DNA of 64,000 nucleotides from a virus (taxonomy: Duplodnaviria; Heunggongvirae; Uroviricota; Caudoviricetes). The first letter of the stretch is position 1; every line of letters begins with the position of its first letter. A program made the position numbers and the translations under genes. Under the pieces are notes generated by a model. The model was not told the origin of the DNA. It did not search any database and saw only the letters and a program-made list of their open reading frames with translations. The DNA lies in the IMG/VR virus record IMGVR_UViG_3300045988_138358; one strand, written 5' to 3'. Of this stretch, positions 6,301-54,313 are shown piece by piece.

Positions 6301-6344
6301 CCAATTGTGTTAGAAAATTCTATTCAATTATCTAACACAATTGG
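6301..6344. promoter_or_regulatory. inverted pair of TGTTAGA operator-like half-sites upstream of rdgC
   Basis: CCAATTGTGTTAGA ... TCTAACACAATTGG, perfect 14-bp inverted repeat with 16-bp spacer, ending 7 bp from the rdgC start. Confidence 0.55.
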
Positions 6345-15260: not shown

Positions 15261-16146
15261 ACACCTTTAACCACGGAGATGCCGTTCCCTGCACGATAGC
15301 GGCGGGGAACGGAATTCTCCATCAGGTCACGAATTACTCCCGCCTCATGTAGTTCCACTGTTTCCCAGTATCTGTTTGTCACCAATTACGCCCCTTTCCG
15401 CCAGGGGAAGGTATGAACGAGCTTCTGCTTCGGTTGCAGCCATGACGCAGATATACAGGTGTTTTTGGCAGGAATAGAAACGCCAGATAAATTCAGAATG
15501 AGTTGGGGTGGGGATAGTAGCGATATTGGCAGCCTCCTTTGACTAAGTTAAGGAGCTACCGCGTGAGGTTCCAATCCCGGCACCCGTTTTTCTAAGGTGC
15601 CGTAGAAATATACCCCACGATAAGGCCAGGGCGCAAAAGTCAGTATTTTATGCTTTGGCGGATTTCTTCCGGGCTTGCTTGCAGGCGTAGGCCATTGCTT
15701 TAGCTTTCACTTCATCCAGCTTCCCGGTGATCACTTCTTTTCCGAGAGTGACAAACCAGTCATAGCAACCGCCAGTGATGTTCTGGATTTGAAAGTTGAG
15801 GTAGCGAACGGTCATTTTGACACCCCCAGCGCGAGTAAAGAATGCAGATTATCGCGTGAGTGGCGGACAACGAGTGATGGGAAAAGACAGTAGCTGTTCA
15901 TAGTGTAGTGACTCCTTGCTTTCGGAGCCGCCTTCGACTGTTCCACGGTCTGGTGGCGGCGCAATAAAGGCTGGAACACCGTGAGTCAACGGGGGCTTTT
16001 CAGCCACCTATATTGCACCGCCATAGGTATAGCGGCGGCAATAATACGAAAAACTAAACAGTTTGTCTCAAAAAGTTGACCGGTGTGCCAATCGGTAGTG
16101 AATGTACATCGGAGAAATTTACAATTCAACTTAAAATGTTAGAAAA

Positions 16147-16725
16147 CTAATTTATCAATTCAATCGCCATCTGATACAACGTCATTTCATCGGCATTGTG
16201 CCGCATGAAATCTGCTTTTCCGCCTATTTTTCCATCAGCATGAACAGGGACCAGCCAGGGATATTGTTCTCGGACCTCGGCTGGCGCTGCGTACTGGTGG
16301 TGCCATTTACACAAAGGGAGGACATATTTATGCGCGTTCTCTGCCGTTCTCCCGAAGATATGGTGCAGGGATACCACTGGGCTATGTTGCCCGTGAATAT
16401 GGCAGGCAATGCAGGGGAGAGTACCGATAGCGGTCTGTATCCGGCGTTCATCGGCTGTGAGTGATCTGCCCTTCAGGCCGCGTGACGTGCGTGTTTTTTT
16501 GGGCGGAGCGGATACCGCTTTATCTTTTCTCCGCTGTTCATATTGCTTTGCTTTTTCAATTTTCTTTTGCCGATATTCAGGCGATGCGGCTTTTTCTCTC
16601 GCTCGCTGCTGCTGGCGTTGAGCTTGTTGAAGGCGCTTTGCCCTTTGTTCCTCTCGCCAGGCTGGGTCAGCCAATTTTTGCATGGCTTTTTGTCTCTGTT
16701 TCTCCCAATAACTCTGTTTCTGCAT
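16147..16725 (-). CDS. ref: HNH-type endonuclease, Ref-like (recombination enhancement function)
   Basis: 192 aa; basic N-terminus then HNH-like core (LPCIACHIHG...SLHHI...LPLCKWHH); size and operator-linked promoter match P1 Ref. Confidence 0.5.
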   Translation of the reverse strand: MQKQSYWEKQRQKAMQKLADPAWREEQRAKRLQQAQRQQQRAREKAASPEYRQKKIEKAKQYEQRRKDKAVSAPPKKTRTSRGLKGRSLTADERRIQTAIGTLPCIACHIHGQHSPVVSLHHIFGRTAENAHKYVLPLCKWHHQYAAPAEVREQYPWLVPVHADGKIGGKADFMRHNADEMTLYQMAIELIN

Positions 16726-16770: not shown

Positions 16771-16806
16771 AATTGTTAGATATTCAAAATTGATTTTCTA
16801 ACACAA
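16771..16806. promoter_or_regulatory. inverted pair of TGTTAGA operator-like half-sites, divergent promoter region
   Basis: AATTGTTAGA ... TTTTCTAACAC with 16-17 bp spacer between the Ref-like gene and the plus-strand accessory operon. Confidence 0.55.
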
Positions 16807-20867: not shown

Positions 20868-20900
20868 TGTGTTAGATTGTTGATTTTAATTTTCTAACAT
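20868..20900. promoter_or_regulatory. inverted pair of TGTTAGA operator-like half-sites
   Basis: GTGTGTTAGA ... TTTTCTAACAT followed by TATTAT, upstream of the 20942 gene. Confidence 0.55.
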
Positions 20901-26997: not shown

Positions 26998-27387
26998 ATG
27001 GGCTTCCCTTCTCCTGCGGCGGATTATGCAGAGAGCCGCATTTCTCTTGATCAGCAACTAATCAGACATCCTTCCGCGACCTACTTCATGCGGGCGGCAG
27101 ACAGCCATCACCGTGAGGGAATATTGCAAGGTGCTTTGCTGGTGGTTGATTCCTCACTTACTCCGGTTGATGGTTCACTGCTTATATGCGCTATGGAGGG
27201 TGAATATCGCATAAAGAGATACAGGAAGTATCCGCGCCAGCACCTGGAGGATTTAAGCACCGGGAAGAAAGAGGCGTTACCAGTAGATGACGATGGATAC
27301 ACGGGCAGTAATGCTGTTTTTGGTGTGATCACTCATGTCATCAATGATGCCCGAAGTGGGGAGTTTGATTATAGACCTGTGATTTAA
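26998..27387 (+). CDS. humD: UmuD'-like protein (pre-processed form), HumD-like
   Basis: MGFPSPAADYAE... aligns with UmuD starting just after its autocleavage site; Ser and Lys of the S24 dyad appear retained; no umuC follows. Confidence 0.75.
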   Translation: MGFPSPAADYAESRISLDQQLIRHPSATYFMRAADSHHREGILQGALLVVDSSLTPVDGSLLICAMEGEYRIKRYRKYPRQHLEDLSTGKKEALPVDDDGYTGSNAVFGVITHVINDARSGEFDYRPVI

Positions 27388-27432
27388 GGCGCATAAAGAA
27401 GCCCGCCAGACCAGGCGGGCTTTTTGTTGATA

Positions 27433-28527
27433 TCATTCAATGATTTTTTCGGCTGTCAGCCAGCTAATTTCGTGCCTGTCTTTCGGCGGTTTTAGCATGT
27501 GAGCATATTCAGCGACATGCTCCCACGGAATTGTTTTTGCCCACTCAACGATAGCATTGTGATCTGCAGTGAAGAGTGGAATAGTGTGCGATTTCAACCA
27601 TTCTAATGTCGTGACGCCATGTTTTTTGGCGTGGTGCTGCGCATGATGCCGGGCTATCACTCGTAATGGCATTGTCCATTCACTACCATCAGGCATCGAA
27701 AAGCGCATTGTCTTCGGCATATCTGATTCAAGAACAGCCTCCCTAATACCAGGGAACTCACCAAGAATCATACGACGATAGTCATCACTATTTCGCCCGC
27801 CATACCTTTCGGCAAAATGATCAAGATATTCTTGGGTAATAAATGGTGAATCCTCCGCACTCAGCTTAATGGCTTTATATACACCACTCGGATTATCTTC
27901 AGCTAAAGCACGTCCATGATGTGAATCATAAAAAAAGCCTATTTCCTCTGGTGACGGAATTGAAGTGAGCAATATGCGTGAATCACCACTAGTCATGCTT
28001 GCCCACACAATGCTGTATGCCCGATCGCTGATATGTGCGGAATCCACAATAATGAATAAAAGATGGTCGGCGTAGTGACCTGCAATGCTATCTTCATAGT
28101 TAAGGCGGTAGTTACAAAAGCACATTCCCCAAAATTCATTGAACATCAGACCGCTATCACCGACCTTAAAATACTCAATGATAAAAGGTTGTTTTTTCAG
28201 CAATGCCTCCCAACATTGCCACACATATGCAACAATTCCTCTTTTGCAAACATTTGATTTTGGATAAACAATTACTGTCCGGGAATCAGGATACATAATC
28301 GTATAAAGGGTACTAATAACAGCAAGCACTTGCGGTCGTCCGATCCCATACGGAGTGGTGACAGTAGCTTTTGCATTATTGGGCTGTATAGCTTCAACAA
28401 TTTGTTGTTGCTGGTGGCTTAAATCAATATCAAACAATTCTTTTGCTGCCAGTACCCAATTGTCTTTATATTTCTCCACCAGCGACAGCCAGCGCGGATC
28501 TTTATAAATATTGCTCTTAGTCGCCAT
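27433..28527 (-). CDS. terminase large-subunit paralog with degenerate ATPase motifs and divergent C-terminus
   Basis: Aligns with PacB-like protein at 33675-35183 (HQQQQIVEAIQ, FYDSHHG...NP.G...I.L..E.SPF), but Walker A GTGKS is replaced by GIGRPQ and Walker B DE by DS; start at internal Met. Confidence 0.55.
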   Translation of the reverse strand: MATKSNIYKDPRWLSLVEKYKDNWVLAAKELFDIDLSHQQQQIVEAIQPNNAKATVTTPYGIGRPQVLAVISTLYTIMYPDSRTVIVYPKSNVCKRGIVAYVWQCWEALLKKQPFIIEYFKVGDSGLMFNEFWGMCFCNYRLNYEDSIAGHYADHLLFIIVDSAHISDRAYSIVWASMTSGDSRILLTSIPSPEEIGFFYDSHHGRALAEDNPSGVYKAIKLSAEDSPFITQEYLDHFAERYGGRNSDDYRRMILGEFPGIREAVLESDMPKTMRFSMPDGSEWTMPLRVIARHHAQHHAKKHGVTTLEWLKSHTIPLFTADHNAIVEWAKTIPWEHVAEYAHMLKPPKDRHEISWLTAEKIIE

Positions 28528-29284
28528 CTGCCACTTCCTTAACTTCTTCTTTGGCCTGTTCTGCAATCGCCGCACGGCATTTCGCCCTGGCCGTAGCGAT
28601 TGCTTCAGCACGCACATCATCAGGAATCGTTGACGTGATATACATATCCAGTTCTTCGGCGCGGAACACTGTTTGGTCCAGATATTCGCGTAGCATCCAG
28701 GTAAATTCGAAATCACACGCGATAATCTCTGCGCTACCTTCTGCACCATTTGGGAAATGAATAAAAGCCTGTTTAGCCAAACCGATAACACGACATGCGG
28801 TTGCCAAAACAGCGGCAACCAGGTTTACATTTTCACACGCTACGGGCTGATTAACGCCGGAGATTACTCCATTTAACTGTCGGTTATATGGAAGGTAGTT
28901 TGAGATGCGTTCTACGCGCCATGTGCCAGTCAGGCTGCCATTCTTAAAGATAATTGGTGTAACGGATAGCCCAAGCTCGCGTATAAGTCGTTGCGCTATA
29001 GCAGGATCATTAAACATGTCTAATGCTACACATTCGAAAGACTGTGCAAGGGTAAACAGTTCTTCCAGAGAGTAGTCTTTGCCCCTGGCGGTGATGTAAC
29101 GATGAACGCCGCTTTCTGCATCACTCCATATAGCTACGCCATGCTCTTCATTCAGCTCTTCATTAAAGCCGAGATACGTCATGATAGTACGTTCAATCGT
29201 GTCAAACGGCAGTGACATGTCGGCGTTAACAGCCACCAGCAGGCCATTACGCAAGCGGTATTGAATTGCTTTAGTATTTTCCAC
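28517..29284 (-). CDS. hypothetical protein
   Basis: 255-aa ORF in the dUTPase operon. Confidence 0.5.
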   Translation of the reverse strand: MENTKAIQYRLRNGLLVAVNADMSLPFDTIERTIMTYLGFNEELNEEHGVAIWSDAESGVHRYITARGKDYSLEELFTLAQSFECVALDMFNDPAIAQRLIRELGLSVTPIIFKNGSLTGTWRVERISNYLPYNRQLNGVISGVNQPVACENVNLVAAVLATACRVIGLAKQAFIHFPNGAEGSAEIIACDFEFTWMLREYLDQTVFRAEELDMYITSTIPDDVRAEAIATARAKCRAAIAEQAKEEVKEVADGD

Positions 29285-29290
29285 GTTAAA

Positions 29291-29755
29291 TCACTCCACT
29301 ACAAACCAGTCACATGCCAGTAAGTCGCCTACAGAAGGCGCCCACGGAACAACTACACCTTGTGCATTTTTTAAGGCGAAATAAGCACCATACGGAACGA
29401 GATCGCCGGGGAAATATCCCTTAATGGCTTCCATTCGTGCCGGGTACTGTCCTTCAGGAACCAGCCAGCAGAATTGGTTTTCGCCGTTCCACCCGCGCCG
29501 GGCAACTTTCTTGCCATCCTTCAGCCACATCAGCGCGTCAGAAAAGTCGGCTGCTTCAAGGTCGATTTCTTCTTGCTGGGTGGTGATGCCACCAGCAGAA
29601 ATAGTTACGCTCCCGGTAAGATTAATCATCACGCCGTTGTCATCCGTAATGATGACCGTGGTTCCATTTTTGGAGGCGTCGTTAACCAGGCCATAGCGTT
29701 CCTCAGATGATTTGGGAAGGAACTTAAAAAGCTCTTTCGTTGCCATGTTATTCAT
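29291..29755 (-). CDS. hypothetical protein
   Basis: 154 aa; ALMWLKDGKKVARRGW motif is shared with the protein at 37437-38012. Confidence 0.45.
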   Translation of the reverse strand: MNNMATKELFKFLPKSSEERYGLVNDASKNGTTVIITDDNGVMINLTGSVTISAGGITTQQEEIDLEAADFSDALMWLKDGKKVARRGWNGENQFCWLVPEGQYPARMEAIKGYFPGDLVPYGAYFALKNAQGVVVPWAPSVGDLLACDWFVVE

Positions 29756-29769
29756 AGTCTTTTCTCTGC

Positions 29770-30264
29770 TTATAACTTTTCGTACTGAAGCGGTGAACGC
29801 TTAATTTCAAAGTGGCCTTCCGATGTGCTACCAAAGCCACCAGCGCCTCGCTCTGTTTCATCGAGTTCATCAACTTCTACCAGCGATACCGGTTCAACAC
29901 GCTCAAAAATGCCTTGCATGACCGCCATTCCTGGCTTGAGGCAAACGCCTTCACCACCGGGATCTGTAATCAGTTTTGCCATGATTTCACCGCGATAATC
30001 GGAGTCGATAATTCCTACGCAGTTAGCCAGGCGAGTATGTTTTTTGCAGCCCAATCCGGAACGCGGATAGAGTTTCAGACACCAGCCGGGCGGGATCTCC
30101 ATAGCCAGTCCGGTGTACACCCACCAGCTTGAGGAAATTGCACCATTGCTATCGACACATGGTTTTATTTCAACAGCCTCAAAATCCATCGCCGCCGATC
30201 CGGAGGTGGCATAAGCTGGAAGTTTTGCTGCCGGATGTAGGCGTTTCACTTTTACGTAAATCAT
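29770..30264 (-). CDS. dut: dUTP diphosphatase (trimeric dUTPase)
   Basis: PRSGL, GIIDSDYRGEI and GGFGSTS motifs. Confidence 0.85.
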   Translation of the reverse strand: MIYVKVKRLHPAAKLPAYATSGSAAMDFEAVEIKPCVDSNGAISSSWWVYTGLAMEIPPGWCLKLYPRSGLGCKKHTRLANCVGIIDSDYRGEIMAKLITDPGGEGVCLKPGMAVMQGIFERVEPVSLVEVDELDETERGAGGFGSTSEGHFEIKRSPLQYEKL

Positions 30265-30737
30265 TGTTTTTTAGCTCTCTGCGTGAATGTGTAAACCCGA
30301 CGTTTGATATGTGGAACGGTAGGAACAGGAAGACAGGAACTTTCAATAACTCCTTGCTCCTCCAGCGATCGCACCGCCCGCAAGAACTGCGACGTGTCGC
30401 CGCCAAACTGGCGGGCATAGGTGCTGCCGTTATGAAGTATTTGAGCTATTACCCGAGCTTTTGTCTGGCTGTCACGATATGCGAATAGCCGCACGGCCTC
30501 TTCTGGCGCAATCGCTAACTGATAGCCTTTCCCGGCACGGTGTCGAATGAATCCATGCGCCAGTAGGTTTTTGAGTTCGTTACGAGTGCGAACAGATCCG
30601 TAACCCAGGAAGTGTGGATTGATAACGACTGGCTTAAACCATTCCGTAGGTGCTTTAGCTAATAGAGCTAACAGCTTCCCGGATAATTCTGGATAGGAAG
30701 ACGGGTAACAATTCAGAGATGGGTAATAAGTTTTCAC
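30261..30737 (-). CDS. hypothetical protein
   Basis: 158-aa ORF, 4-nt overlap with dut. Confidence 0.45.
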   Translation of the reverse strand: MKTYYPSLNCYPSSYPELSGKLLALLAKAPTEWFKPVVINPHFLGYGSVRTRNELKNLLAHGFIRHRAGKGYQLAIAPEEAVRLFAYRDSQTKARVIAQILHNGSTYARQFGGDTSQFLRAVRSLEEQGVIESSCLPVPTVPHIKRRVYTFTQRAKKQ

Positions 30738-31078
30738 CGACGCCCCCTTGCAGGATATCGACCGGCATTAGTATCCGGTGCAATAAAGCCGGTAGTGGGG
30801 CGAGTGAAAGCGAGATTAATCTTCTCGACCATAGTGCGATAATTTTCCTGATAGTGGGCCAGGAGTTTTTCGGCGGCAATGATGGTTACTTTCCGGACGT
30901 AGCTTTCTGCTTCCTCCAGATTTCGCCAGTTTTTTTCGAGGGTAAACACAGGGACGGCCTCAAGCCCGGTCATGATGCCGAACACAACGACAGCATGACT
31001 GTTCTTAACACCAGCGGCGAAGGTTACGGTGTAACCATCCACCTTGAAGCGTCTTGATTCCGTGATTTGACTCTGCAA
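30734..31078 (-). CDS. hypothetical protein
   Basis: 114-aa ORF; first gene after an operator-like motif at about 31137. Confidence 0.45.
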   Translation of the reverse strand: MQSQITESRRFKVDGYTVTFAAGVKNSHAVVVFGIMTGLEAVPVFTLEKNWRNLEEAESYVRKVTIIAAEKLLAHYQENYRTMVEKINLAFTRPTTGFIAPDTNAGRYPARGRR

Positions 31079-31151
31079 AGCACCCTCCTAAATAGGCGAG
31101 GGTACTTTACAGCAAAGACGTTAATCTAAAAAGATGTGTTAGAAATTTAAT

Positions 31152-32180
31152 TTACGAATCCATCAGGCGGCTATTAGCCCCCACAGACACGCCGCCACGG
31201 CGAAGATACCGCATAAGTGTTTCCGGTTTCTTCCAGGTTCCTTCCTGCATGATCTCCACCATAGACACCTGCTTTTCAGCCATATCAATAGCGGCCCCGA
31301 CGCGTGCACTATGCCCGGTCCACGTCCGGTATCTTCCTTTGTTTGGCGTAGCATCTCTTTTATTCAGCAACACCCAGGCGTCGCTGAATATTTTCTCCAT
31401 TGCAGGTGCAGTAAGGGGCGTTGTCGTGATCCTGGCCTTATTGCTACGGTGTATCGGCGGGAACAGCACTGCGTCAGGATGTTCGCGAAGCCCGGAAACA
31501 TCCAGCCAGTCATTCAGCACAGCGGTAGTGCGACGGGAAAGCACCTTATCAAGCCCGGCGGCGGTCGTTATTGTCTTCGTGTGTGAAATATGTAGCGTGA
31601 CAGTGTCACCTGTTTGGTCCAGATCTCCTACACGAATACGCGAGATTTCCGACATACGCATCAGCGTATTGTATGCAACAAAGAGAAAAGCCCGGTTGCG
31701 CAGGTCCACCAGCCGTTCTGACCTGGACAACAGGACGTCGAGCAGTTTCAGATCGTCCCACCGCAGCGGTATAGCCTGGCCTGTTCGTTCGCCTTTTTCA
31801 GTTGCCGCTTCGCGCCGGATGCGCCGCATAGCCAGAGAAACACTTTTATCATCCGAAAGTGGCGGAAGGCCACAATGCGAAAGCAGCATGTTCAGCATGG
31901 CGTAGTGCTTATCAATGGTGGTCGAAGCCAGATCGGCATCATGCAGCTGAAGAAAATACTCGCGGGCCATTTCTGGTGAGATCGGAAACCAGGCAAGCTG
32001 GCGAGCGTGACACCAGCGCGCCCAGGAATGAAACACCAAACGGAGGTCGCGCAGAGTATTCGGCGCATAAGCTCCCTGGTCATTCATGAACCGCATAAAG
32101 TTTTCTGCGGCTTCCTGGTACTCTTTGCCAATGTTGCGCAGAAAACCACCGGAACTGCCAGAGATAATTAATTCACTCAT
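31152..32180 (-). CDS. dre: Cre-family tyrosine recombinase, Dre-like
   Basis: Roughly 45% identity to P1 Cre by eye across the catalytic domain (SLAMRRIRRE, AYNTLMRMSEISRIRV, WTGHSARVGAA, LMRYLR); paired with a rox-like site. Confidence 0.9.
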   Translation of the reverse strand: MSELIISGSSGGFLRNIGKEYQEAAENFMRFMNDQGAYAPNTLRDLRLVFHSWARWCHARQLAWFPISPEMAREYFLQLHDADLASTTIDKHYAMLNMLLSHCGLPPLSDDKSVSLAMRRIRREAATEKGERTGQAIPLRWDDLKLLDVLLSRSERLVDLRNRAFLFVAYNTLMRMSEISRIRVGDLDQTGDTVTLHISHTKTITTAAGLDKVLSRRTTAVLNDWLDVSGLREHPDAVLFPPIHRSNKARITTTPLTAPAMEKIFSDAWVLLNKRDATPNKGRYRTWTGHSARVGAAIDMAEKQVSMVEIMQEGTWKKPETLMRYLRRGGVSVGANSRLMDS

Positions 32181-32332: not shown

Positions 32333-32364
32333 TAACTTTAAATAATGCCAATTATCTAAAGTTA
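32333..32364. other. rox-like recombination site (14-bp inverted arms, 4-bp spacer)
   Basis: TAACTTTAAATAAT-GCCA-ATTATCTAAAGTTA; differs at one right-arm position from the D6 rox site as recalled; 152 bp upstream of the recombinase start. Confidence 0.8.
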
Positions 32365-32565
32365 GAAATTTAGGAATTTTTTTCCTTTCCGCGCAGATGG
32401 GCAATGCATTGCTGGTGTGGGCTTTAAGTTATGCCTGGCAGTTTTTAAGCAGAATTTTCTAAATTGGATGATAAAAAAATGCATCTTGATCCTTTACTCA
32501 CCCTGTTATTCGGCATAGATTTGTCATAGTAATTTTATGTTAGAAAACTAAATCGAGTAGGAATA

Positions 32566-33603
32566 ATGAGTAAGAAGTCGATCGAGAAAGAGTACAAACG
32601 GTTCCTGCAAACCGCTGAACGGTGGAAAGAGCTGGTGGTCGCAAACTCTGTTTTCCATGATACCAGTTATTCCGGCGAGGAATTCCGCCATGTTGCACTA
32701 ACACATGATCAGAATGTGCTAGAAGAAGCTGAAAAGTGCCTCACAGAATGGAAAGCCTTTGTTGACTTGTGCCGTAACGCTGACGGCAAAGCGTCTAACA
32801 TTGTTGAGTCTGTATATTCTCCGATCCCATTCATTATCGAGGACACAAATCAAAGCACGCATATTGTTGTGCAAAGCGCGACCACCACCCGCTCATTTAC
32901 GCGCGAAAATCTGCTCAAAAAATATGATGCAATTATAAAGAAAAGCCTGAAAAACAAGATATTTTCGCAGATTGTTGGTGCACTTGAAGAAGAGCGCCGT
33001 TTTTTCGCATCAGAACCTGAAGGGGAAGTTTACCGGGCGCGCAAAGATGGATACACAGATGTAGTGCTTACAACAAACATTGAAGGCAGCAATGCTCTGT
33101 CACGATTCAGGGTAGGCGCACACGGAGCCTTAGTGTTCGCAAAACTTCCGAACACCACAGTGCCCGTTGTTAATAATGTCGGCGAACGTCGCAGCATTAC
33201 TATTTATTCTGGGGTTGAGTCGATACCTTGCGGCCTGCTTGGTGACTTTAGTCTCTATCGCGTTCGCGATCTGGAGAAACACCAACCAAGCTATGTTGCG
33301 AAGTCATACATCTTGCGAAACATCGACATCCGCAATGAGAGCTTAAAGAACAAATCAGCCAAAATGCTTGAGGAAGCCGATCCGGCTATTCGCCATATCA
33401 TTGAGCGTAAAATACAGACAGCACGCGAAGCGATGGCGAGACTGAATAAAATGGATCTGGAGTTGTTAGACGTAATGATGACATCCGGAGATGACCTGAC
33501 AGGCATAAAACTGACAGACGCGCGGAAAAGATACGGTAAAACCATAGAAGAACGTTACGGGTTCACTTTCTCCCAAACACAGCACGCCGCTAAACTCTGG
33601 TAA
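32566..33603 (+). CDS. hypothetical protein, candidate regulator
   Basis: 345 aa; an operator-like motif (TATGTTAGAAAACTAAAT) sits about 15 bp upstream of its ribosome-binding site. Confidence 0.45.
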   Translation: MSKKSIEKEYKRFLQTAERWKELVVANSVFHDTSYSGEEFRHVALTHDQNVLEEAEKCLTEWKAFVDLCRNADGKASNIVESVYSPIPFIIEDTNQSTHIVVQSATTTRSFTRENLLKKYDAIIKKSLKNKIFSQIVGALEEERRFFASEPEGEVYRARKDGYTDVVLTTNIEGSNALSRFRVGAHGALVFAKLPNTTVPVVNNVGERRSITIYSGVESIPCGLLGDFSLYRVRDLEKHQPSYVAKSYILRNIDIRNESLKNKSAKMLEEADPAIRHIIERKIQTAREAMARLNKMDLELLDVMMTSGDDLTGIKLTDARKRYGKTIEERYGFTFSQTQHAAKLW

Positions 33604-33674: not shown

Positions 33675-35183
33675 TCAAATATCCAGATCTGGCATTTCTA
33701 CATCTGCAAGAACCTGATCGCGGAAGGTAGCCATTTCAGCGCCGATATCTTCATTAGCAGGAACATAGTCCACCAGCATTGTAAAGCAGTAGGTATCCCA
33801 TCGGTCAGGTGATTTGATGTTCAGCTTTTGCCGCATGTGCTCCTTGCGCATCATCGCCATCTTCCCTTCTTCATTAAGTAAAAAGGGGATTTTTGACGCT
33901 TGCTCTGCCGTTTTAGGGTCGCTGTCTATTCGCATACGACCTGACTTTATGGCATCACGAGCCATAATATTTGCGTAGGCACGCTGGTTAACAAAACGCT
34001 CCTTGTCTTTGTTCGAAAACATGGGTTTCCCCCACCGAATCCGTACCGGATTAGCCCCACGGCGCACCAGCTGCGCACAGGTATCTGAACCAAAACCGTC
34101 TGCGTCAACCGCGATTGTAATATTCGGGTATTTATCCGGCGTGCATTCGTTGTATATAAAGTCAGCAAAAGCCAGCGGGTCCATAGTCCCTGGCATTTCC
34201 ATTACCTTAAAGTTAACAACACGCCGCTTTTCCCGGTGACCAGACACTTTACAGATATTAAGAACTGACTTGTCTCGCCCGTTACCAACGTCAGCAGTAG
34301 CCACCCATCCCCAGTTTTTCTCCAACAACACCTTGCGCCGCGCAGCGCGATCGCATTCATCACGACCAAGCAAATAGCCGTTAATCTCCCGAGGAAACTG
34401 ACCAAGAACCTTGACCATGTACTCAATAGAATCGCGCCCGCCATATTCTAGGAGTTTCTGCCTGATGAATTGTGGTGTGACGAACGGTGATTCTTCTGAG
34501 TTAAGAACAATTGCTGTCCAGATCCCTTTCGGGTTGTCTGGGGTTTTAGCTTGAGAATGGTGCGAATCGTAGAAATAACCACTTGGCCTTGTTGGCTGGG
34601 ATAGCATCAACATTCGGTTATCTTCTTCAGTCAGAGCGCCAGTCATTACGCCGATCGCTTTATCAGATATACCTGATGCTTCATCCAGAATTAGAAGCAA
34701 ATGTGCCGCGTGCTCCCCCGCCAGAGCTTCTTCGTTACCGAGTCGATAGCCTTTGCAGAGAACTTCCCAGATCCCCTTTCGAGAGCGTTCATAAAACATG
34801 GTGTCAGACAGGACAAAATAGGTCTGTAACCACCCATGACGCTTAACGGCATTCGCCCAATACTGTTTAACGTATTTGAATACACCTGTCTTAACCTGAC
34901 CTATTTTGTTAGCAACAATGATGACACGGGCATCGGGGAACAGAATCAAATAAATCAGCAACAACATAGCCGTTAGCGACGATTTCCCTGTACCGTGACC
35001 AGAGGTAACAGTGGTTCTGCTCCCTTTTTGCTGTACGGACTGGATAATCTCCTGCTGCTGGTGGGAGGGAAACATCCCGAATATATCAACAACAGCCTGG
35101 GTAAAGTTGTAGCGGTATTTGATTACCATATCGCGCCAGCGTGGATCGCTGGTGACGCATTTAATCTTGCGCCCACCAGCCAT
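33675..35183 (-). CDS. pacB: terminase large subunit (PacB-like)
   Basis: Walker A TSGHGTGKS, Walker B LLILDEASG, C-terminal Asp-rich nuclease-like domain. Confidence 0.85.
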   Translation of the reverse strand: MAGGRKIKCVTSDPRWRDMVIKYRYNFTQAVVDIFGMFPSHQQQEIIQSVQQKGSRTTVTSGHGTGKSSLTAMLLLIYLILFPDARVIIVANKIGQVKTGVFKYVKQYWANAVKRHGWLQTYFVLSDTMFYERSRKGIWEVLCKGYRLGNEEALAGEHAAHLLLILDEASGISDKAIGVMTGALTEEDNRMLMLSQPTRPSGYFYDSHHSQAKTPDNPKGIWTAIVLNSEESPFVTPQFIRQKLLEYGGRDSIEYMVKVLGQFPREINGYLLGRDECDRAARRKVLLEKNWGWVATADVGNGRDKSVLNICKVSGHREKRRVVNFKVMEMPGTMDPLAFADFIYNECTPDKYPNITIAVDADGFGSDTCAQLVRRGANPVRIRWGKPMFSNKDKERFVNQRAYANIMARDAIKSGRMRIDSDPKTAEQASKIPFLLNEEGKMAMMRKEHMRQKLNIKSPDRWDTYCFTMLVDYVPANEDIGAEMATFRDQVLADVEMPDLDI

Positions 35184-37011: not shown

Positions 37012-37046
37012 TTATATTAGAAAATTAATTCCATTCATCTAACACT
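37012..37046. promoter_or_regulatory. inverted pair of TGTTAGA operator-like half-sites upstream of the pac operon
   Basis: TATTAGAAAATT ... TCTAACAC; on the gene strand the distal half-site is followed by TATAAC. Confidence 0.55.
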
Positions 37047-38465: not shown

Positions 38466-38541
38466 TGGTGGCCCCTACCGGACTTGAACCGGTGACCGTG
38501 CGATTATGAGTCGCCAGCTCTAACCACTGAGCTAAAGGGCC
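38466..38541 (-). tRNA. tRNA-Ile (anticodon CAT, ileX-like; Met not excluded)
   Basis: Reverse complement folds as a canonical cloverleaf with anticodon loop CTCATAA and encoded CCA; very close to E. coli ileX as recalled. Confidence 0.8.
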
Positions 38542-38953
38542 AGATTACTGTTAATTCCGCTTACGCTTTTTGCCAGAACCGCGTAAGGCTTTTGCCGCTT
38601 GCTCGATCCCATATGCAACCACCAGCAGAAATAAAAATGTCCAACCAGGGTTCTTATCGGCAAAGGCCCAAAAATCCATCACTTGCAGCTACCTTTTAAG
38701 ACAAAACGCCATTGCTGTTAGATTGCGGTGCCTGGTGCCTCCAGGTGACGTTAACCAGTTAACAATTAACGCCGGGATGTTTGATTTAACCACTAAGGAG
38801 GATTGTTTTAACTGTTCCGCGTGCGCTTAGCCGCATTCACCGCAATGGTAAGAGCACTTGGCTGGCTGGGCGGCGATGACGCCTGTACGCATTTGGTGAT
38901 CCGGTTCTGCTTCCGGCATTCGCTTAATTAGCCAAATACTCTTAACGTTGCGC

Positions 38954-39040
38954 TGGCGGAGAGTAATGGAATCGAACCATCATCGCTTGCGCAATGGGAC
39001 GGTTTTCAAGACCGCTTGAGCACCATGCTCCCTACTCTCC
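38954..39040 (-). tRNA. class II tRNA, probably Ser (anticodon TGA), atypical D-arm
   Basis: 87 nt; 7-bp acceptor stem, anticodon loop CTTGAAA, long variable arm, T-arm GATGG-TTCGATT-CCATT, G73, CCA; D-arm does not fold canonically. Confidence 0.45.
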
Positions 39041-39185
39041 GGCCGTTGTGGTGGCCGGTACTGAATCTCCGGCATACGGTGCAGCCAATTAGGACTACGG
39101 ACGATCACCGCTCGCGAAAGGGAAGATTTGCGGCCGCATTTCCCTAACATCCAAGAAAGCTATCGCATCAGTCTGCGAATCCACC

Positions 39186-39277
39186 ACAACGTTGAGAACA
39201 CTGGTTGTCACGCTGCAACGCAACATTTATTCGTAGATTGGGATATGACCCCGTTACGTCAGTGTTCTCAACGTTGT
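39186..39277. repeat. perfect 18-bp inverted repeat with 56-nt loop
   Basis: ACAACGTTGAGAACACTG at 39186-39203 and its exact reverse complement at 39260-39277, in the non-coding tRNA region. Confidence 0.6.
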
Positions 39278-39420
39278 AGTACCGGTTACGGTTCCGGCCA
39301 GGCCTCTTCCTCAACGGGGTATTCTCCATACGGACTACCGTTTATTGGTCGTTCCTGCGGTTTATGTTGTGAAGCCAGATGCTTATCTTCTGGTTGCTTC
39401 AAAGAGCTGCACTTCATCAC

Positions 39421-39500
39421 AACGGTAAGGGTACTTCGTAGGGATTCGAACCCTCTGCCAAGCACGGCGATCTCCGACGTCGCAAAATACCCTTACCTGT
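39421..39500 (-). pseudogene. tRNA-like remnant
   Basis: GGGTTCGAATCCC T-arm-like element enclosed by a 10-bp helix (GGTAAGGGTA/TACCCTTACC); no canonical cloverleaf can be drawn. Confidence 0.25.
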
Positions 39501-39505
39501 TGTGT

Positions 39506-39581
39506 TGGTGCCGATTAACGGACTCGAACCGCTGACATCCTGCTTACAAGGCAGGCGCTCTACCAACTGAGCTAAACCGGC
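39506..39581 (-). tRNA. tRNA-Thr (anticodon TGT)
   Basis: Canonical cloverleaf, anticodon loop CTTGTAA, T-loop TTCGAGT, CCA encoded. Confidence 0.85.
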
Positions 39582-39583
39582 AT

Positions 39584-39660
39584 TGGCGATGGTGGGTGGA
39601 TTCGAACCACCGACCGACAGCTTAGAAGGCTGCTGCTCTATCCTACTGAGCTACACCATC
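39584..39660 (-). tRNA. tRNA-Arg (anticodon TCT)
   Basis: Canonical cloverleaf, anticodon loop CTTCTAA, T-loop TTCGAAT, CCA encoded; 2 nt from tRNA-Thr. Confidence 0.8.
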
Positions 39661-40242: not shown

Positions 40243-40899
40243 ATGCGGCACTCTCTCCGCCCGTCACCGCTCTGTCTCGGTTGTCGCGTTTGCCACGCCA
40301 GCCATAACGAGGTTTAAAGTCTTTGCACGTTTCCATCACTCGACTGCCGTCTGTGGCTGTTCGTTGCAGCGGGGGTGCCTCCCCCTGGGGATATCCCCGG
40401 CCTTACCCCATTCTTTCAAGACACAATGCAAGGCCGCATCCGCATAGGTGCATTACCGCAACATTAAGGAGACTTAGGGCAAAAGGTAATCGCCACAAAA
40501 AAATCCCTATGCCTCCTTAATGTTGAGGATGTGCATTGATGATGATTCGATGCGGCGAGTCCCGTTACTCTCTGCCGGACCATCATCAATGAACATCTTA
40601 AAAAGACCTTCCGTGGCTCAACATGTCTTGTCGTTTACTCCGTAAAGTGCTCTCTCTGAAACCACTTTACGCACTAAACCTGCTGAACTTTGGCTTGCTC
40701 GGTGCCAAAGCGAATCCCTGTATGCATGTAATTTTCTAACACTTTAATTTGTTATTTGCTGGTGGGCGAACAACAACCAATAAGTGACTATCAAGCCCAG
40801 CAAGCGAAATGTGGCAACGCTCCACCAGCAAGGAAAATTCTAAGTTAAGTTACTCTCACAATCAATATGTTCGTTTGGTGAAATTAGATTTCTAACACA

Positions 40900-42106: not shown

Positions 42107-42189
42107 ATTGCAGTTCCCATTGTTTTTGCAAAATTAGTTTTCTAACATATTTTATTAGTATGAGAACAAGATCGAAAGATGTGATAAAC

Positions 42190-42733: not shown

Positions 42734-43225
42734 TTAATCAAGACAAACATATTCCGTGATAGCTTTTATGGCTTCAGCGGCACTGCGCGCCTCAAAGCAG
42801 TAGTAACCTGCTTCGGTGAGGCGAGTCATCCAGACGAGTTGTTCGGGAGTCAGGCGATTTCTCCCATGTTTCATCTCAATGCGCATTCCGTGGTATCCCC
42901 CACAAGCAAGGTCTATAGAAAGATCGGGATATCCCTTCTTTTGGCCCTCTGCCACCATTTTTATTGCCGTCCTTATGCCTCGCAGACCGCCGTTTGGAGT
43001 GGCGTGTGTATGCTCATACACATAGCGCATATTGCGATACAACCAATCCAGGACGCGTACCTGCTCGTAATGCTCATGGTTCCTTTTGATTAGATCTGGG
43101 TTTTTCTCCAGTTCTCTGAGAGCTGCGGCATGTGGTGATGTTTCAGAATATTCACTGCGACGCCTTCTTTTTCTCGCTATTTTTCTAACACACCCATTGA
43201 TAGTAAATAAGCGAAATAATAACAA
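42734..43225 (-). CDS. VRR-NUC domain nuclease
   Basis: KGYPDLSIDLACGGYHGMRIEMKHGRNRLTPEQLVWMTRLTEAGYY fits the VRR-NUC core; the 5' end is uncertain because the frame opens on TTG. Confidence 0.55.
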   Translation of the reverse strand: MLLFRLFTINGCVRKIARKRRRRSEYSETSPHAAALRELEKNPDLIKRNHEHYEQVRVLDWLYRNMRYVYEHTHATPNGGLRGIRTAIKMVAEGQKKGYPDLSIDLACGGYHGMRIEMKHGRNRLTPEQLVWMTRLTEAGYYCFEARSAAEAIKAITEYVCLD

Positions 43226-52512: not shown

Positions 52513-52934
52513 CAGTGTGCCTCCGCAATTCCGGGATTGGTAATATTGCGATACCAAGGATTAGTGTTTGGTTGTGATGAAGTAGAGAAACGGCCAGTCA
52601 GGACGCCATGTTGATCAGGGATCAGAGAACGGGCTTCTTTTTCAGTTGCGGCAATTGCGAAGTGATCACAGTGTTTTTGCAGGGAGTGGAAACGCCAGAT
52701 AAATTCCGGGCGCGAGCAAGGATTGGCATTAACCATAGTTACGGCCTCATTCGTAGGTTTAACAACCTGCGCCCCGCTGCTAAACGGGTGGCAGGACGTG
52801 ACGGGGTTAGCAGACTGGCACGAATGAAACCAGCAGGCCGAAGCCTCCCCATCACGCCCCACCATAATTCGGGCGTAACGTGGTTTTACGGACACAAAAA
52901 TACCGCAATATCGGATATCTGCGGTTGTCCGCAT
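52512..52934 (-). CDS. Icd/Ash-like small protein (tentative)
   Basis: Overlaps the start of the Rha/Ant-like gene as icd does in P1; the 5' part may be structured leader RNA rather than coding. Confidence 0.3.
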   Translation of the reverse strand: MRTTADIRYCGIFVSVKPRYARIMVGRDGEASACWFHSCQSANPVTSCHPFSSGAQVVKPTNEAVTMVNANPCSRPEFIWRFHSLQKHCDHFAIAATEKEARSLIPDQHGVLTGRFSTSSQPNTNPWYRNITNPGIAEAH

Positions 52935-53066
52935 TCGTATTCAGGCTGCTAAACCCGGTCGCAGAATTTGCTACGACGACATGAATATAAGCCTGAAAAC
53001 ATGGAAGATCAACTAAAAATTTCAGCAATGGATGACTTCAGTCGATGATGCAGATCATACATTCCG

Positions 53067-53097
53067 ATTTAGAAACAGCAAATTAATTTTCTAACAC
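53067..53097. promoter_or_regulatory. operator pair and promoter for the icd/ant-like operon
   Basis: On the minus strand: TGTGTTAGAAAAT, 16 bp, TTCTAAAT, then TGTATGAT (extended -10-like). Confidence 0.5.
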
Positions 53098-54207: not shown

Positions 54208-54313
54208 TGGCAGTCGCTACCGGAGCAGTGACCGCGATCCTACTCGATCACATCGGACAGGATCAACAGTGTATATAAATACACTATGTTAGAAATTTAA
54301 TTTCATGCAGCGG

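Follow-up and report, generated by a model that had tools for sequence, protein, structure and literature searches.

Few phage proteins are as conserved as the large terminases, which serve as single-copy markers and are a main target of bacterial pattern-recognition immunity. In phages of the P1/D6 type the large terminase is PacB, which joins an ASCE ATPase to an RNase H-like nuclease. The window analysed here, that is, the whole 64,000-nucleotide (64-kb) stretch of the Caudoviricetes record IMGVR_UViG_3300045988_138358, is a D6-like, P1-family plasmid prophage that encodes, besides its own PacB, a second PacB-like protein at the end of a six-gene operon, here called paralog X. The first ~260 amino acids (aa) of X and PacB are homologous (33-37% identity); over this part the two proteins agree in their predicted ATPase fold, in their N-terminal helices and in the blocks of the lid region. 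Unlike PacB, X is without the P-loop Lys/Ser, the Walker B Asp and the coupling motif, has no nuclease domain and measures 364 rather than 502 aa; it is accessory and is found in an early instead of a packaging context, without pacA next to it. X cannot be a terminase; rather, it has kept the terminase fold in a selected and modular form.

Three other groups of proteins invite comparison. The closest analogues in function are non-enzymatic satellite proteins that act on the packaging of a helper phage by binding terminase; two of them, Ppi and Rpp, bind helper TerS. Gpi of the Vibrio PLE satellite binds helper TerL (PMC11417361). X, as proposed below, would resemble these proteins in being non-enzymatic and accessory and in acting on packaging by protein binding during inter-element conflict. 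It is important to point out that Gpi, Ppi and Rpp are satellite-encoded and are no homologues of terminases, whereas X is a terminase homologue encoded by a phage-plasmid, and its interaction is only proposed. The second group comprises the immune sensors Avs2 and Avs3: the terminase ATPase domain alone activates Avs2, and both sensors read the catalytic Glu and the ATP bound at Walker A (bioRxiv 10.64898/2026.08.25.746987). The N-terminal domain (N-domain) of X is akin to a lone terminase ATPase domain, the unit sufficient for Avs2, and PDB 8dgc is among its fold matches. Unlike the trigger, it has neither the Walker A ATP site nor the catalytic Glu; X is therefore expected not to set off Avs2 or Avs3, which would permit its early expression. 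The third group is a family of free-standing 'MPDGSxW' proteins, whose domain in X is fused to a dead terminase domain. In the literature searched, no description was found of a catalytically dead, domain-swapped terminase paralog, or of a conserved and selected terminase derivative of this kind that is swapped as a cassette.

Domain architecture of paralog X

The gene, its domains and the packaging genes of the window are located as follows.

27433-28527, minus strand: paralog X, 364 aa, last gene of the operon, N-domain plus C-terminal domain (C-domain)
27742-28527, minus strand: X N-domain, aa 1-262, apparently a polymorphic cassette; terminase-type ATPase fold without catalytic motifs
28330-28359, minus strand: degenerate Walker A, TTPYGIGRPQ where PacB has TSGHGTGKSS
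28036-28062, minus strand: degenerate Walker B, LLFIIVDSA where PacB has LLLILDEAS
27433-27741, minus strand: X C-domain (the tail), aa 263-364 plus stop codon, diverged and His-rich member of a ~100-aa early phage protein family
33675-35183, minus strand: resident functional PacB, the large terminase, 502 aa, GHGTGKS and LDEAS intact
36547-33675, minus strand: pacA-pacB pair, the real packaging genes of the window

The mechanical open reading frame (ORF) of X starts at a TTG at 28818. The real start is the ATG at 28527, giving 364 aa; it is preceded at 6 nucleotides (nt) by a GGAAG Shine-Dalgarno sequence, overlaps the isaA stop codon and is the annotated start in relatives. Over 258 aa, X is 37% identical to PacB of the window (BLASTP, E 6e-62), and the same comparison finds no similarity past aa 262 and none to the PacB nuclease domain. 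In the structure predicted with high confidence for X (AlphaFold2 from a 75-sequence alignment; pLDDT 92, pTM 0.86), the N-domain adopts the ASCE-type ATPase fold of TerL/PacB. Its top Foldseek matches in the PDB are the large terminases of Sf6, P74-26, T4 and HK97 (E 1e-7 to 1e-6), and the D6E large terminase is also among the fold matches; a PDB sequence search with X gave no match. Alignment and structure prediction agree with the original prediction of a PacB-like paralog whose ATPase motifs are not intact.

For the motifs, five X sequences spanning four subfamilies were compared with 21 PacB-type terminases. That the last gene of the operon encodes a PacB paralog with a degenerate Walker A is borne out by the alignment, in which GHGTGKSS becomes PYGIGRPQ. 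The Gly-Lys-Ser/Thr signature is missing, the window type having GIGRPQ and the other subfamilies GIGETS, GIGQKT, GIGHKS or GVGTKT, and none of the four subfamilies has the P-loop Lys in its usual place, the residue being lost or shifted; TTPxGIG is invariant in six aligned sequences from three of them. Walker B is degenerate too, but the substitution is not the DE to DS that had been described: a gapless alignment gives DE to VD (LDEAS to IVDSA), a trivial difference, as the acidic pair is broken either way; across the X family V, T, A, M, I or L stands in place of this Asp. For the coupling motif that follows strand 4, QPT.R in PacB, X has IPS, APS, TPP, KPS or DPE, and it does not conserve K..R, the basic residues between the Walker motifs. 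Overall, the catalytic positions conserved in PacB are lost: SGHGTGKS is reduced to G.G, and DEAS, K..R, GALT..NR and QPT.R are gone. The C-terminal RNase H-like nuclease domain is absent as well, its place being taken by a tail of another family and another predicted fold, and no small-terminase gene adjoins X, since the product of its isaA-like upstream gene is dissimilar to PacA. The blocks kept in both X and PacB (GxFYDSHH, LNxExSP, Y..G and G.F) are surface or structural ones. X lacks five of the six features that define a terminase and should not be filed or annotated as one.

In the databases X is nevertheless listed as 'hypothetical protein', under PHROG 5902 as 'unknown function' or, wrongly, as 'terminase large subunit', and caution is warranted where terminase-based phage typing and annotation can catch the paralog. 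The match to the PHROG 5902 profile is full-length: residues 4-363 of X cover positions 2-358 of the 359 in the profile (E 1.1e-164). Pfam holds nothing for X, and neither does NCBIfam, in a search that did not cover the tail alone.

The original prediction was right that a His-rich tail has replaced the nuclease domain; it missed that this 'unrelated' tail belongs to a large family of early phage proteins that otherwise stand alone. This family is widespread, shows the pattern 'MPDGSxW...DTLPLF...DWAxNNMxW', corresponds to the C-terminal part of PHROG 17928 and has no Pfam family; the search returned 197 representatives at E<=1e-3, and the family comprises about 945 clusters. The X tail aligns along its whole length with free-standing proteins at 30-40% identity (E down to 1.5e-14) and has the Trp, Phe and Ala that are invariant in the family, F, W and W being invariant in the alignment with X. 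Tail and free-standing proteins are also predicted to have the same fold, a two-hairpin plus helical bundle. The ~100-aa tail holds 10 His residues and has gained a His-rich helix, RHHAQHHAKKH, and the near-invariant polar residues of the family (R31, E38, E49, D50, N67, N68, D87, N94, G95; alignment A7) are mostly replaced in the E. coli X types. Far more of the residues conserved in the free-standing family are retained by the tail of X from a distant P1-like element, IMGVR_UViG_2773857937_000001 (L027), and, judging from this retention, X of the L027 type may be close to the ancestral fusion. X offers a handle on a large uncharacterised family of small early phage proteins.

Free-standing genes of the tail family lie in strings of small early genes. 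In lambdoid prophages they are found between the DnaB-type replication gene and NinB (the nin region); further locations are the early-left operon beside int and, in phages unrelated to these, other early regions. Fusions also occur within the family, with DUF1351 or a Lar-type zinc ribbon as the partner. One protein (P0015; L093 6001-6741, GCA_024867085.4 contig ABHTOV040000060.1) begins with the tail domain and continues with a PacB-like N-terminus, the P-loop of which (GSGTGTT) has no Lys; its domain order is thus the reverse of that in X. The existence of this reverse-order fusion suggests that tail and terminase-like domain are functionally linked. The gene is cut off by a 548-aa reverse-strand ORF, which from the look of its sequence alone we take to be a Tn3-family transposase. 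AbiH and RecA-dependent-nuclease genes lie nearby.

Age, distribution and exchange of the X family

Four subfamilies of X can be distinguished. The first is the window type; the second (~65% type) occupies the same slot in other D6-like plasmids; the third (52% type) is found in true P1-like plasmids between ssb-isaA and hxr; and the fourth (37% type) is encoded at 3995-5083 of L027, directly after a DnaB-type helicase gene and without isaA. The 52% and 37% subfamilies were found by tblastn and an IMG/VR scan, a word-indexed homology search having missed both, and PLSDB has no plasmid with the 37% type. A neighbour-joining tree built on the N-domain places all X proteins in one monophyletic group, whose sister clade is formed by PacB of P1-like elements. 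X is an old, monophyletic family derived from an ancient PacB-type duplication and not a local duplicate. Both this ancestry and the membership of the tail in a known family go beyond what the original prediction had recognised.

All 27 full-length X copies examined, taken from independent contigs, are intact, and all of them lack the catalytic residues. In most pairs the ratio of non-synonymous to synonymous divergence (dN/dS) lies at 0.07-0.30 in the N-domain and at 0.06-0.20 in the tail; it reaches 0.51-0.54 for two ~65%-type alleles (L014/L015). With all 27 copies intact and dN/dS at 0.07-0.54, X is not a pseudogene; the earlier view that its ORF is intact is upheld, and the signature of purifying selection shows that it is no recent pseudogene.

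Full-length X occurs in 163 PLSDB plasmids, and the window type in 45 of 5426 complete E. coli genomes, plasmid-borne every time; an identical copy of the window gene is carried by the E. coli plasmid pTB423 and other ~90-kb plasmids. X is absent from D6 and from reference P1. The corresponding slot of reference P1, a known variable hot spot (PMC6906374), holds IS1 and the unrelated isaB in place of X. The idea that P1 isaB is a remnant of X split by IS1 was rejected, isaB and X being dissimilar.

The surroundings of X are those of early genes. In P1-like plasmids X follows ssb-isaA, a gene pair that in P1 has an annotated C1 operator, Ossb, and in the distant relative it follows the DnaB-type (ban-like) helicase gene. 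X is not a neighbour of pacA/pacB; it closes operons that contain ssb, ban or dut and are early or putatively controlled by C1. Neighbours of the counter-defence type are a Tad2-like gene in the window and the hxr-ddrB-ddrA-darA operon in P1-like plasmids; with the Lar-type fusion of the tail family, they make up the context that may point to an anti-defence role.

The modularity of X is most apparent when the window is compared with the D6-like plasmid pCUVET20-PYO4.3, with the following identities.

PacB, protein: 98%
PacA, protein: 94%
IsaA, protein: 96%
isaA region, 29564-28545, nucleotide: 95-100%
X N-domain: 53%, with sharp boundaries; 28544-27747, nucleotide: 45-78%
X tail: ~96%; 27746-27447, nucleotide: 93-98%

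Synonymous divergence (dS) is 1.4 in the N-domain as against 0.18 in the tail. From this pattern of identity, the dead ATPase domain appears to be an exchangeable cassette on a near-identical backbone. Since the N-domain is only 53% identical between two plasmids whose PacA and PacB are 94-98% identical, X does not co-vary with the packaging proteins.

Proposed function and its alternatives

The identity and architecture of X are nearly certain. As to its function, our tentative preference, held with somewhat less than even confidence, is for X as an accessory, non-catalytic 'terminase mimic' that is deployed against host immunity or a rival element and does not serve as a routine packaging regulator. 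In the descent of X, the nuclease domain of a PacB-type large terminase gave way to a copy of a small domain that is found in hundreds of phages as a separate early protein. In the proposed scheme, the resulting protein would work by binding, without ATP hydrolysis or DNA cleavage; its terminase-like domain would serve as a variable recognition module, swapped as a cassette between otherwise identical plasmids, and its tail as the conserved working module. X would be made early, as the last gene of an operator-controlled operon, and would engage something that recognises the terminase ATPase domain. Early, repressor-controlled expression is inferred from the operator-like motif of the window, from Ossb before ssb-isaA in P1 and from the position after the ban-like helicase gene. 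A role in conflict fits better than a housekeeping role because X is accessory, sits in hot spots beside genes of the counter-defence type, is probably early and does not track PacA/PacB. If X does act on immunity or on rivals, it would show that phages are able to reuse, as weapons, proteins of their own that the immune system detects.

Several points weigh against this reading. A full-text literature search turned up no partner, experiment or publication on the X family, and PADLOC, run for X on the full-length protein only, gave no match. The tail has no structural match and no Pfam match. The N-domain cassette diverged long ago (dS about 1.4, dN/dS about 0.3), and its pattern looks like allele exchange, not demonstrable positive selection. 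The blocks common to X and PacB could equally reflect binding of X to PacA, PacB or the portal. Finally, X is without the features read by Avs2 and Avs3, so that a simple high-affinity decoy is not expected.

An unlikely but substantial alternative is that the N-domain is an inert scaffold and that the function of X is the early role of the tail family (replication, recombination or host takeover), without terminase partners. The tail is indeed the part that is nearly identical between alleles; its free-standing relatives lie beside DnaB, NinB and NinG and include DUF1351 fusions, and X itself follows ssb, a DnaB-type helicase gene or dut in three lineages. An inert scaffold, however, fits poorly with an N-domain under purifying selection (dN/dS 0.07-0.54) that has kept its PacB-type surface blocks, or with the separate reverse-order fusion, which joins the tail domain to a Lys-less terminase-like domain and so points to a functional link. 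Moreover, the X tail has lost many residues that are near-invariant in the free-standing family.

Somewhat less probable again is that X regulates its own packaging by binding PacA, PacB or pac DNA, limiting or timing pac cleavage until heads are ready. In P1 the pacase is produced earlier than the heads, and cleavage at pac has to be controlled; in addition, the preserved terminase fold and the blocks found in both X and PacB (GxFYDSHH, LNxExSP and the N-terminal helices) suggest a common partner. A dedicated regulator would nonetheless have to be dispensable to D6 and P1, which do not have X, and to be encoded in early operons unlinked to pacA/pacB, and its N-domain (53%) shows no co-variation with the supposed partners (94-98%). 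The original prediction had offered regulation of packaging or interference with a competing phage as roles for an ATPase-inactive protein; neither is established, and the case for a regulator is lowered by accessory status, early operons and domain swapping.

Returning to the preferred reading of X as a terminase mimic in conflict, a specific version of it, which we regard as quite improbable, is that early X occupies or blinds terminase sensors (STAND proteins of the Avs type) before PacB appears late in infection. The fused tail would then block sensor oligomerisation or add an inhibitory activity, and the exchanged N-domain alleles would track sensor diversity. If true, X would be the first counter-defence protein derived from a viral protein that immunity detects.

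It is very improbable that X is still an NTPase, with GIGQKT, GIGHKS and GVGTKT acting as a P-loop into which one residue has been inserted. A Lys followed by Ser/Thr does occur one position downstream in two of the four subfamilies, and the Q of the upstream adenine-binding motif is kept; yet such a Lys is missing from GIGRPQ of the window type and from GIGETS of the P1 type, every subfamily has a hydrophobic residue or Thr for the Walker B Asp, and QPT and the conserved K..R are gone. That X is a decaying duplicate, a pseudogene in progress, as the loss of every catalytic motif and the truncated copies in databases (P0003, P0007) might suggest, is already effectively refuted by the 27 intact full-length copies, by dN/dS values that for both domains stay under 1 in all pairs and mostly under 0.3, and by four synonymously saturated subfamilies that share an unchanged architecture and have new invariant motifs (TTPxGIG).

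The operon, its putative operators and the element

X is the last of six co-directional minus-strand genes (31078-27433) whose junctions are, in order, -4, -4, +14, +6 and -11 nt. A six-gene dUTPase operon behind an operator-like motif had been described beforehand, and all its elements were found at the positions given for them. The features of the operon upstream of X, and those of the element around it, are listed below.

31136-31149, minus strand: operator-like motif TAAATTTCTAACAC, in the 73-nt gap between the cre-like gene and gene 1
30734-31078, minus strand: gene 1, 114 aa, D6 orf117, PHROG 1968, TTG start behind AGGAGG
30261-30737, minus strand: gene 2, 158 aa, D6 orf116, PHROG 6669, overlaps gene 1 by 4 nt
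29770-30264, minus strand: dUTPase, Pfam PF00692 (1.3e-13), overlaps gene 2 by 4 nt
29291-29755, minus strand: Tad2-like/DUF2829 protein, 154 aa, Pfam PF11195 (2e-22)
28517-29284, minus strand: IsaA-like protein, 255 aa, 47% identity to P1 IsaA, PHROG 2326
27392-27416, minus strand: strong intrinsic terminator right after the X stop codon, common to the convergent humD
32180-31152, minus strand: cre-like recombinase gene, a P1-family gene
32566-33603: c1-like gene, 345 aa, between pacB and cre, positional equivalent of the C1 repressor
38466-39660: cluster of four tRNA genes (Met, Ser, Thr, Arg), a standard P1-type feature
52784-52990: C4 antisense RNA and a1/b1 target, P1-type immunity, a standard P1-type feature
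6307-6338, 16136-16149, 16773-16804, 20887-20900, 31136-31149, 32359-32372, 32537-32550, 37014-37027, 40729-40742, 40885-40898, 42135-42148, 43178-43191, 53084-53097, 54286-54299: positions of the operator-like site family

The core of the motif, TTTCTAACA[CT], occurs 12 times in the window as against 0.24 expected in shuffles; with 3 mismatches allowed there are 20 matches as against 6.7 expected, two inverted pairs included. Copies lie upstream of the lpa-like gene (37014), upstream of the C4 RNA (53084) and downstream of cre, positions at which the operator map of P1 has C1 operators. These sites probably constitute the operator set of a D6-type C1 repressor, distinct in sequence from the P1 operator consensus. 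The P1-type consensus itself was tried and is absent from the window even at 3 mismatches. The 345-aa c1-like protein matches the NCBIfam C1 model weakly (23 bits, cut-off 500), which is consistent with a very divergent C1 and with a different operator sequence. A consensus scan of the 73-nt gap that contains the site at 31136-31149 reported no sigma-70-like promoter, while a weak TTAAAT-16-TAGATT can be picked out there by eye. From the arrangement of these sites we infer that the operon is early and under the control of a putative C1 repressor. The site family as a whole is ~17 nt long, with a consensus of roughly AAATTARTTTTCTAACAY, and is found upstream of lpa-like, C4, cre-like and c1-like genes. 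Between the motif and gene 1 lies a 9-nt inverted repeat (31079-31106; coding strand ACCCTC...GAGGGT). It would fold the ribosome-binding site of gene 1, AGGAGG, into a hairpin and may be a translational control element.

The assignment to the D6-like, P1-family plasmid prophages rests on the match of window 27000-31200 to Escherichia phage D6 (96% identity over 72% of the length) and on that of humD to P1-group phages (93-94% identity), together with the cre-like and c1-like genes, pacA-pacB, the tRNAs and the C4 RNA. The junction between humD and isaA is a recombination hot spot: D6 (L001, 5389-6889) has pdcA-doc-phd-orf109 there, whereas the window (27388-27432) is without these genes and has X instead, and another D6-like plasmid (L004) carries both X and doc-phd.

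The IsaA-like protein is the usual upstream partner of X. Pfam, NCBIfam and PADLOC gave no match for IsaA or for genes 1 and 2, and a PDB sequence search with IsaA was likewise negative. That IsaA is a PacA paralog, which would make isaA-X a duplicated terminase operon, was considered and rejected, IsaA and PacA being dissimilar.

Between dut and isaA lies the gene of the Tad2/DUF2829 type, a family of anti-Thoeris sponges. Among close relatives its product varies in length, with 154 aa in the window as against 146 aa for D6 and 220-225 aa for a further two D6-like plasmids, and the gene has a 96.5% patch in common with phage vB_EcoM-Ro157c2YLVW; from this variable length and common patch, it is mosaic as well. 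Elsewhere in the window, the segment 10001-12000 has a G+C content of 0.39 as against ~0.47 in the remainder and may be a recently acquired accessory segment.

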